From: Escherichia coli
Lineage (GTDB): Bacteria > Pseudomonadota > Gammaproteobacteria > Enterobacterales > Enterobacteriaceae
Direction: 5' to 3' (one strand)
Assembly: GCF_003334785.1 (NCBI RefSeq)
Contig: NZ_QOWV01000001.1
DNA length: 64,000 bases
Shown here: positions 47,421 to 50,400 of the stretch, one piece after another
How the letters are laid out: the number at the start of each line of letters is the position of its first letter
How positions within the stretch are numbered: position 1 is the first letter of the stretch
Notes under the pieces: model-generated
What the model was told of the DNA's origin: nothing
The model's input: the letters and a program-made list of their open reading frames with translations, nothing else
The model's database searches: none
Program-made: the position numbers and the translations under genes

Positions 47421-50400
47421 ATGCAAAGGAAAACTCTATTGTCGGCCTGTATTGCATTAGCTCTGAGTGGTCAGGGTTGGGCGGCAGATATCACAGAGGT
47501 AGAAACCACCACAGGTGAAAAGAAAAATACCAATGTGACTTGTCCGGCAGACCCAGGAAAACTCAGTCCGGAAGAGCTTAAACGCTTACCCTCTGAATGC
47601 TCTCCTTTAGTCGAACAAAACCTGATGCCATGGCTTTCCACAGGCGCTGCTGCGTTAATCACGGCCTTAGCCGTAGTGGAACTAAACGACGATGATGATC
47701 ATCATCATCGCAACAATTCTCCACTCCCACCGACACCCCCTGATGATGAATCAGACGACACTCCAGTTCCCCCAACTCCTGGCGGAGATGAGATAATACC
47801 GGACGATCCGGATGATACGCCTACACCTCCCAAACCGGTTTCGTTTAATAATGACGTTATTCTCGATAAAACAGAAAAAACGTTAACTATTCGCGATTCA
47901 GTTTTTACTTATACCGAGAATGCTGACGGGACTATATCTCTGCAAGATAGCAATGGTCGTAAGGCAACGATTAATCTTTGGCAGATTGATGAAGCGAATA
48001 ACACTGTTGCCCTTGAAGGGGTGAGCGCAGATGGCGCAACGAAGTGGCAATATAATCACAACGGTGAGCTTGTTATTACGGGTGATAATGCCACAGTAAA
48101 CAACAATGGCAAAACCACCGTTGACGGTAAAGATTCCACCGGTACGGAAATCAACGGTAATAACGGGAAAGTGATTCAGGACGGCGATCTGGATGTCAGC
48201 GGCGGCGGTCACGGTATTGATATCACCGGTGACAGCGCGACGGTGGATAACAAGGGCACCATGACCGTCACCGATCCGGAGTCCATGGGTATCCAGATCG
48301 ACGGTGACAAGGCCATCGTCAATAACGAAGGCGAGAGCACCATCACCAACGGTGGCACCGGCACCCAGATTAATGGTGATGACGCCACGGCAAACAACAA
48401 CGGCAAAACCACCGTTGACGGCAAGGATTCCACCGGTACGGAAATCAACGGTAATAACGGAAAAGTTATTCAGGACGGCGATCTGGATGTCAGCGGCGGC
48501 GGTCACGGTATTGATATCACCGGCGACAGCGCAACGGTGGATAACAAGGGCACCATGACCGTCACCGATCCGGAGTCCATCGGTATCCAGATTGACGGCG
48601 ACCAGGCCATCGTCAATAACGAAGGCGAGAGCACTATCACCAATGGCGGCACCGGCACTCAGATCAACGGTAACGACGCCACCGCGAATAACAGTGGAAA
48701 AACCACTGTTGATGGAAAAGATTCCACGGGTACCAAAATCGCGGGCAATATCGGCATTGTAAATCTGGATGGTAGCCTGACTGTTACAGGCGGTGCGCAT
48801 GGTGTTGAGAACATTGGTGACAACGGCACGGTTAACAACAAAGGAGATATTGTTGTTTCCGATACTGGATCGATTGGCGTGCTCATCAACGGTGAGGGGG
48901 CAACAGTATCCAATACGGGTGATGTTAACGTTAGCAATGAAGCGACAGGGTTCAGCATCACAACCAACAGTGGGAAGGTTTCGCTGGCAGGCAGTATGCA
49001 GGTTGGCGATTTCTCGACCGGGGTAGATCTTAATGGCAACAATAACAGCGTGACGCTGGCGGCAAAAGATCTAAAAGTGGTCGGGCAGAAAGCGACGGGC
49101 ATAAACGTTTCTGGCGATGCGAATACAGTGAATATCACTGGTAACGTTCTGGTTGATAAGGATAAAACCGCAGACAATGCGGCGGAATATTTCTTCGATC
49201 CATCCGTGGGTATCAACGTTTACGGCAGTGATAATAACGTGACGCTGGATGGAAAGTTAACTGTTGTATCAGACAGTGAGGTTACTTCTCGTCAGAGTAA
49301 TTTATTTGATGGCAGCGCAGAGAAAACGTCAGGTCTGGTTGTGATTGGCGATGGCAATACCGTTAATATGAATGGTGGACTTGAACTGATTGGAGAGAAA
49401 AACGCGCTTGCAGATGGGTCGCAGGTTACTTCCTTGCGCACAGGATATAGTTATACCAGCGTTATTGTCGTTAGTGGTGAGTCGTCGGTATATCTGAATG
49501 GAGATACGACAATCAGCGGAGAATTCCCTCTGGGGTTTGCCGGGGTTATTCGGGTACAGGATAAAGCTTTGCTGGAAATTGGCAGTGGCGCTACGCTAAC
49601 AATGCAGGATATTGACAGTTTTGAACATCATGGGACAAGAACCCCAGAACTTACTTATGCTGATTCCGGTGCGAAAATTGTTAATAAAGGTACTGTTGAA
49701 ATTCAGAATTTAGGTTTTGCTTTTGTTACTGGTGAAAATACAACAGGTATAAATAGTGGCACGATCTCGTTATTACAAAATGGTAAAGATCCGGCACCGT
49801 CTCCCATTGTTTTACTGGCTACTAACGGAGGGAGCGCCACTAATGCAGGTACGATCACAGGTAAAGTGACGGAACAACATAGCGTATTTAACAAGTATTC
49901 AACGGGCACATCGAATTCATTTATTTTTAATAACGATGTCAGTAGCATAACAGGGTTAGTCGCTCAATCGAATAGCACAATTATCAATACTGACAGCGGC
50001 ATCATTGATTTGTATGGTCGTGGTAGTGTCGGCATGCTTGCTATAGCAGATTCAACAGCAGAAAATCAGGGTAAAATTACACTGGATTCTATGTGGGTAG
50101 ATGCAAATGACACTACCGCAATGCGAGATATAGCTAGCAACAGCGCCATTGACTTCGGTACAGGTGTGGGAGTTGGTACTGATAGTTATAGTGGTGCAGG
50201 GAAAAATGCAACAGCAATTAACCAATTGGGCGGTGTTATAACTATTTATAACGCCGGCGCAGGTATGGCGGCCTATGGCGCCAGCAATACAGTTATTAAC
50301 CAGGGGACGATTAACCTCGAAAAAAATGGTAATTATGACGATAGTCTGGCAGCAAATACTCTGGTAGGGATGGCTGTTTATGAGCATGGTACTGCTATCA

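Follow-up and report, generated by a model that had tools for sequence, protein, structure and literature searches.

A variable coding tandem repeat in the passenger of an Escherichia coli ydbA/upaH autotransporter and its probable history of contraction

Here we describe a tandem repeat array in the ydbA gene of Escherichia coli, located in a 64-kb stretch of contig NZ_QOWV01000001.1 (assembly GCF_003334785.1), which was analyzed as a whole and is referred to below as the window. The gene (47421..53189, plus strand) is an intact coding sequence (CDS) of 1922 amino acids (aa), as follows from the list of open reading frames (ORFs) and the translation, and it encodes a type Va autotransporter of the ydbA/upaH family. 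The distal N-terminal part of the passenger probably comprises a coding minisatellite that changes its length in register and that has gone through two contractions here. The array in the window, with two high-identity units followed by a diverged one, is best read as a twice-contracted remnant, whose copy number would have fallen from about eight to three and then to two. The feature is of a known kind, i.e., an in-frame variable repeat in an adhesin already described as highly repetitive and variable, and the gene is an ordinary allele of upaH. Our additions are incremental: the unit corresponds to four predicted rungs of a beta-helix, the copy number ranges from 0 to 9 (to about 12), a two-step contraction can be read from chimeric units, and ydbA proves to be the upaH locus.

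Anatomy of the array and origin of its units

Tandem Repeats Finder revealed a single strong array at 48081-48740 (period 294, 2.2 copies, 90% matches, 0 indels, score 1082) and no second array with a score of at least 150 within the 64-kb window. When the sequence was compared with itself at a lag of 294 in 30-nt blocks, the identity was 80-97% from 48081 to about 48440, fell thereafter, and reached the background level (10-40%) by about 48680-48700. The period equals 98 codons, and the units are arranged head-to-tail without indels inside the ORF, which makes the array a coding tandem repeat. In the codon-phased register, unit 1 (type t04) occupies 48081..48374, unit 2 (type t10) 48375..48668, and the terminal diverged unit (type t01, denoted T in the unit maps) 48669..48962, all on the plus strand; units 1 and 2 comprise 98 codons each, and the terminal one keeps their register. 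No further copies of the unit were found elsewhere in the window.

Units 1 and 2 match at 273 of 294 positions (92.9%), leaving 21 differences. The preliminary description of this DNA, made from the sequence alone, placed the units at 48108 and 48402; this register, with 271/294 matches (92.2%), describes the array shifted by 27 nt, and the module quoted there, GKTTVDGKDSTGTEINGNNGKVIQDGDLDVSGGGHGIDITGDSATVDNKGTMTVTDPES, is present twice in the translation. The third unit shares 61-62% of its nucleotides and 52-55 of 98 residues with units 1 and 2. We rejected the possibility that it represents an unrelated sequence, its register and four sub-repeats matching those of the preceding units; it is unchanged in 11 of the 14 alleles examined. 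The array finder, the lag-294 self-comparison and the translation all confirm the earlier claim of a real tandem repeat, in which a diverged third unit comes after the repeated 98-aa module. As to the wording "almost identical" used for units 1 and 2, their identity is indeed high, but with 21 differences in 294 nt the expression is overstated.

Each distinct 294-nt unit was given a type, and an ordered map of types was drawn for each allele. The K-12 array reads t04 t03 t02 T and the window array t04 t10 T, unit 1 being identical in the two. Unit 2 of the window coincides with t03 at 8/8 informative sites up to unit position 93 and with t02 at 12/12 informative sites from position 217, with no private differences. 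Between them, unit positions 94-216 are devoid of informative sites, as t03 and t02 are identical over this 123-nt tract, which sets the crossover interval at 48468..48590 (plus strand). The data indicate that t10 is a single-crossover recombinant of K-12 unit 2 (t03, the 5' part) and K-12 unit 3 (t02, the 3' part).

The type t04, shared by the window and K-12, matches t05 at 17 informative sites and t07 at the next four, with one switch between positions 135 and 219 and one private single-nucleotide polymorphism. It is a chimera of the first (t05) and sixth (t07) units of an 8-copy array such as that of strain TOK-001 (L012), whose map reads t05 t27 t06 t08 t28 t07 t03 t02 T. In this array, t07 directly precedes t03 t02, as t04 does in K-12, and therefore a single exchange between units 1 and 6 of an 8-copy array like that of L012 suffices to give the K-12 array. 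Besides t10 and t04, the single-switch chimeras with 0-1 private differences include t19, t11, t12, t13, t20, t15 and t30. In t13, found in L005 (t13 t07 t03 t02 T), and in t20, t05 is joined to interior units; in the 1-copy alleles, t05 or t04 is joined to t02, and in the 0-copy allele the junction of t04 with the terminal unit falls within 8 identical nt. Chimeric units of this kind, situated at contraction junctions, characterize the array as a variable-number tandem repeat. The 9-copy array (L011) has the map t05 t23 t06 t08 t07 t24 t25 t26 t02 T.

Most probably, the array changes its length through misaligned homologous exchange between units, so that a chimeric unit is left at each junction; the route may be recombination, either unequal between sister chromatids or between alleles, or else slippage during replication. 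At the first step, an 8-copy TOK-001-like array would have lost five units by a crossover between t05 and t07, giving rise to the K-12 state t04 t03 t02 T; at the second, a crossover between t03 and t02 would have removed one more unit and created t10, thereby producing the array of the window. We infer the direction from long to short because the long arrays hold variants that are not derivable from t04, t03 or t02, and because t07 precedes t03-t02 just as t04 does; the molecular route may be RecA-dependent or slippage. The unit-type maps provide a simple means to read the history of an allele, which in this case points to two contractions and not to a new duplication.

Copy number among E. 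coli alleles and predicted fold of the unit

The ydbA gene was found in 3,127 of the 5,426 complete genomes searched. We fetched 13 K-12-like alleles and delimited the array in each of them by a left flank of 300 nt, the same in all, and by the diverged terminal unit. The high-identity unit is present in 0 copies in L004, in 1 copy in L003 and L009, in 2 copies in the window and L008 (J53-p1-pV-hybrid-1), in 3 copies in K-12 MG1655 and J53 (L001, L002) and in L007, in 4 copies in L005, in 6 copies in L006 (P276M) and L010, in 7 copies in L013, in 8 copies in L012 and in 9 copies in L011; the genes are annotated as intact at 0, 1, 2, 6, 7 and 9 copies. The copy number differs between alleles with identical left flanks, which is the behavior of a variable-number tandem repeat. 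For a broader census, it was inferred from the record span in evenly spaced rows of two match rankings (about 60 rows per search). Three copies were the commonest (17/24 K-12-like rows in one sampled ranking, and similarly in the other), and the 2-copy form of the window was in the minority (2/24 sampled K-12-like rows). The diverged allele of ST131 (8517 nt) bears about 11-12 units with the same period and register as in the K-12 family, the units being 92% alike among themselves and 82% like those of the K-12 family; the diverged allele L016 has no array. The proposal that the repeats are substrates for copy-number change is therefore well founded, given 0-9 copies among the E. coli alleles and the clean single-crossover chimeras at the junctions.

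Some rearrangements are other than whole-unit events: the ST131 allele L014 holds a truncated unit of 207 nt (9519-9725), and one K-12-like allele (H173) falls short of the 0-copy form by 207 nt. One of the six units in L006 (5415-5705) lacks 2 nt, and the annotation marks this gene as frameshifted, which could reflect either a true pseudogene or a homopolymer error of the assembly.

The 98-aa unit consists of four sub-repeats of 25+24+25+24 residues with the pattern GDxAxVxNxGxxxVxxxxxxGIxIx, and its autocorrelation peaks at lags of 98, 49 and 24/25 aa; the corresponding 147-bp sub-period is also seen in the ST131 and CFT073 alleles. An AlphaFold2 model was built for aa 140-640 on an alignment of 14 sequences, including 13 trimmed homologues from a representative search, which was used instead of a word-indexed homologue search that had yielded almost only E. 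coli fragments and was unfit for alignment. The mean predicted local distance difference test (pLDDT) score of the model is 87.7, and across the repeats it is about 98. The strands assigned by DSSP number three per rung, with a long strand every 24/25 residues and 12 rungs for the three units; therefore, one 98-aa unit is predicted to form exactly four rungs of a three-stranded beta-helix. Foldseek matches to PDB were all weak (template modeling scores 0.13-0.35) and were taken as evidence of the fold class only, those recognizable by name being without exception beta-helix proteins (Ag43, TibA, Hap, pertactin, phage tailspikes and PL6 lyases). A search of PDB chains with the passenger sequence gave no match at E <= 0.01.

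Since the predicted unit comprises an integral four rungs, the gain or loss of a unit should disturb neither the reading frame nor the register of the solenoid, altering by four rungs the stalk that would bear the BigA_N domain at its tip. The rise of a beta-helix is usually about 4.8 A per rung, and if this value applies, the stalk length would change by about 2 nm per unit. In other words, the array would show that a beta-solenoid adhesin can change its length in register, four rungs per step. Variable coding repeats are known in the alpha C protein of group B streptococci, the Xr region of staphylococcal protein A, Candida Als proteins and the beta-helix repeats of Ag43/AIDA-I. Like the array under study, these comprise in-frame units whose number varies by misaligned recombination, altering the exposed stalk; in contrast to them, the units of the window are long (294 bp), differ from each other at about 0.2 of synonymous sites (pS), and form, according to the model, four beta-solenoid turns each.

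Several points weigh against the picture of a minisatellite contracting in register. The long-to-short polarity rests on parsimony and not on an outgroup root or a dated tree; the census was drawn from evenly spaced ranking rows and not from all genomes; and some of the public copy-number differences, such as two units in the J53 hybrid vs. three in J53, could be artefacts. The figure of about 2 nm per unit is taken from the textbook rise and not from the model coordinates. Finally, any phenotypic effect of array length is putative, and the reviews conflict on the binding of the extracellular matrix by UpaH (PMC12525524 vs. PMC9289746).

Selection on length, assembly errors and age of the units

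Among the alternatives to be weighed, one implies that the length of the array does not drift neutrally but is under diversifying selection as a device for tunable length or antigenic variation, serving to match O-antigen/capsule depth or to escape antibodies. The existence of 0-9 (to about 12) copies with intact frames at many lengths is consistent with this, and the units themselves are under strong purifying selection: the pooled values over 26 unit types are 0.21 for pS and 0.096 for the ratio of nonsynonymous to synonymous differences per site (pN/pS). Moreover, variation in the UpaH passenger is reported to alter the biofilm phenotype (Allsopp 2012, cited by PMC12525524 and PMC5595812; also PMC8281228). 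However, the gene is often a pseudogene, disrupted by the insertion sequences (IS) IS2 and IS30 in K-12 and by IS3, IS5 or IS1 elsewhere, which argues that the loss of ydbA is tolerated; in addition, one length (three copies) dominates the K-12-like family. We consider selection on length very unlikely as an explanation. It is also unlikely that the array acts as an evolvable "ruler", where selection would hold the unit protein near-constant, synonymous divergence would confine exchange to a few long identical tracts, and four-rung changes of the stalk would be selected to set the BigA_N tip just beyond the O-antigen/capsule layer.

The next alternative is an assembly artefact: the source genome would have at least three units, and the assembler would have collapsed t03 and t02 into the chimeric t10. 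If the two units were collapsed over the 123 nt in which they agree, exactly a t10-like chimera would result, and a collapse at this locus is documented. In the original CFT073 genome (NC_004431.1, L017 24322-30361), the upaH locus comprises 6040 nt with two CDSs, whereas in the resequenced genome (CP058222.1, L018 1821-10358) the gene between ydbL and pdxI has 8538 nt and encodes 2845 aa; the original is thus about 2.5 kb short and split, in line with reports that upaH was misassembled in the first CFT073 genome (PMC5595812, PMC3419190). The J53 hybrid assembly with two units, compared with three in J53, also speaks for an artefact. Nevertheless, the exact 1922-aa protein is encoded on 441 contigs, and the 5769-nt gene is present in at least 26 of the complete genomes listed, which come from unrelated sources and include NCTC86 and NCTC9967; in three of them it is 100.0% identical as reported. 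Furthermore, the K-12-type assemblies in the sampled rows, the J53 hybrid excepted, all resolve three units, and therefore systematic collapse is not the rule. These data make it highly improbable that the copy number in the window is an artefact. The representative of the 90%-identity cluster of the 1922-aa protein has 2020 aa, i.e., 98 more.

As regards the laboratory strain J53, the array of the hybrid assembly (L008 1161-1748) reads t04 t02 T and that of J53 (L002 7707-8588) t04 t03 t02 T. This one-unit difference may reflect either a real loss in culture or an assembly collapse, and this possible artefact is the sole hint of a within-clone change of the array. The warning in the preliminary description that the repeats can mislead assembly is supported by the CFT073 case: the array is a documented assembly trap and the cause of the upaH misassembly, so that ydbA/upaH lengths derived from short-read data should not be trusted. 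A very large share of the database proteins for ydbA are marked as partial, with 700-1100 aa, and stop where the contig does. Breaks within ydbA, either at the repeats or at IS insertions, are common in draft assemblies.

The least tenable alternative, put forward earlier on the grounds of high DNA identity, is a recent tandem duplication in the window lineage with two barely diverged copies, and it is extremely improbable: although units 1 and 2 are much closer to each other (92.9%) than to the third unit (61-62%), 17 of their 21 differences are synonymous and four nonsynonymous (synonymous divergence, dS, 0.31; nonsynonymous divergence, dN, 0.018; dN/dS about 0.06), unit 1 is common to K-12 intact, unit 2 combines the 5' part of K-12 unit 2 with the 3' part of K-12 unit 3 without a private change, the same unit types follow in the same order in the 4- to 9-copy arrays of other strains, and the common state is three copies, not one. 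With purifying selection this strong, a dS of 0.31 is at odds with a recent event. Judging from the sequences, the units are old, with the protein sequence conserved by purifying selection, and both units of the window are clean single-crossover chimeras of units present in longer arrays.

The host gene and its relation to UpaH, K-12 ydbA and BigA

The protein encoded in the window begins with a probable signal peptide MQRKTLLSACIALALSGQGWA (47421..47483, plus strand), followed by AD, as recognized by direct reading of the translation. The BigA_N beta-barrel domain (aa 140-220; 47838..48080, plus strand; Pfam PF25784, E = 8e-33, model positions 1-80 of 80) lies directly 5' of the array, which begins at aa 221. 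Further downstream, on the same strand, are the BigA beta-sandwich domain (51891..52142; PF25783, E = 2.4e-25) and the autotransporter beta-barrel translocator domain (52506..53096; PF03797, E = 7.2e-19). The order is thus the probable signal peptide, an acidic His-/Pro-rich linker, BigA_N, the array, a long beta-strand-rich region, the BigA beta-sandwich and the barrel. The C-terminal barrel found by Pfam and the beta-helical passenger of the AlphaFold2 model assign the protein to type Va autotransporters, and the two BigA domains together with the ydbA/upaH locus assign it to the YdbA/UpaH/BigA subfamily. The CDSs of complete E. coli genomes that are reported as 100.0% identical go under the names of BigA/YdbA N-terminal beta-barrel domain-containing protein or autotransporter.

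In the window, the gene is preceded by paaX and paaY (paaY at 46500-47090) and followed by pdxI (53397-54257) and ydbD, and the order around K-12 ydbA is identical. The ydbA/upaH locus spans from paaY, or from ydbL in strains without the paa operon, to pdxI. Both the domains and the paaX-paaY-ydbA-pdxI synteny with K-12 support the initial assignment of the array to the passenger of the ydbA autotransporter.

UpaH is said to have been described by Allsopp and co-workers in 2010 and 2012 as an AIDA-I-type autotransporter of uropathogenic E. coli CFT073, reportedly with a gene of 8.535 kb and 2845 aa. When the 2845-aa protein from the resequenced CFT073 was looked up by its exact sequence, the protein collection gave no match, and therefore the link to UpaH was made by primer mapping. 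The published upaH primers (GenBank FJ719778.1; PMC11658850, Table 1) match the 8538-nt CFT073 gene perfectly, 665 bp apart. We conclude that ydbA and upaH are one locus, and that ydbA is the K-12-type allele of upaH. In the full-text literature searched, no paper naming both ydbA and upaH was found, and ydbA appeared with an autotransporter or a tandem repeat only in incidental mentions. In the literature, upaH is called "highly repetitive" and variable between lineages (PMC5595812, PMC3419190, PMC8281228), and in reviews UpaH is stated to promote biofilm formation and bladder colonization (PMC12525524, PMC5595812, PMC8281228).

The window protein and UpaH of CFT073 share the position upstream of pdxI, the architecture (probable signal peptide, BigA_N, array, beta-helix and barrel) and the 49-aa (147-bp) basic repeat. 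Their N-terminal BLASTP alignment shows 66% identity, the first ~220 residues being nearly identical by eye, and over the C-terminal 640 aa the identity is 62% (BLASTP). In contrast, UpaH comprises 2845 aa vs. 1922 aa in the window, its array consists of about 8.3 copies of a 441-bp higher-order unit vs. 2+1 units of 294 bp, and the central passenger of the window protein is so diverged that the upaH primers do not match. The poorly characterized ydbA pseudogene of K-12 is hereby tied to a studied virulence-associated adhesin.

Outside the array, the window gene hardly differs from K-12 ydbA: there are 0/660 differences upstream, 5/984 in the segment between the array and the IS2 insertion, and 0/3498 over the C-terminal portion, with about 0.2 kb near the IS elements omitted from the comparison. 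Unit 1 and the terminal unit are identical as well. The alleles differ in that K-12 has three high-identity units (t04 t03 t02) in a pseudogene split by IS2 and IS30 (L001 7347-15968), whereas the window gene is intact and bears t04 t10. The IS3, IS5 or IS1 elements of other strains reside at differing positions in ydbA, and therefore the gene is either a frequent IS target or often dispensable.

The window protein has BigA_N, BigA_beta and the barrel in common with Salmonella BigA (NCBIfam NF033178), which is its best NCBIfam match (aa 1120-1922). Its score, however, is 1075.9 bits vs. a curated cut-off of 3400 for this exception-level model, and therefore it should be regarded as a BigA relative and not as BigA itself.

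Between the signal peptide and BigA_N (47600-47837, aa 60-139), the window protein bears a hydrophobic stretch LSTGAAALITALAVVEL and, after it, the residues DDDDHHH and a linker rich in Pro and Asp (PPTPPDDESDDTPVPPTP); the aa 60-139 region is also conserved in CFT073 UpaH. K-12-like genomes have a RefSeq annotation between paaY and ydbA, a hypothetical protein of 21 aa (WP_010723099.1; L001 7120-7185), which corresponds to ~47194-47259 of the window on the minus strand. An antisense ORF of 300 aa (47898-48800, minus strand) was dismissed as being without support; the strand opposite to it is a Gly/Asp/Asn/Thr-rich coding sequence, and the ORF is most likely a by-product of this repetitive sequence.

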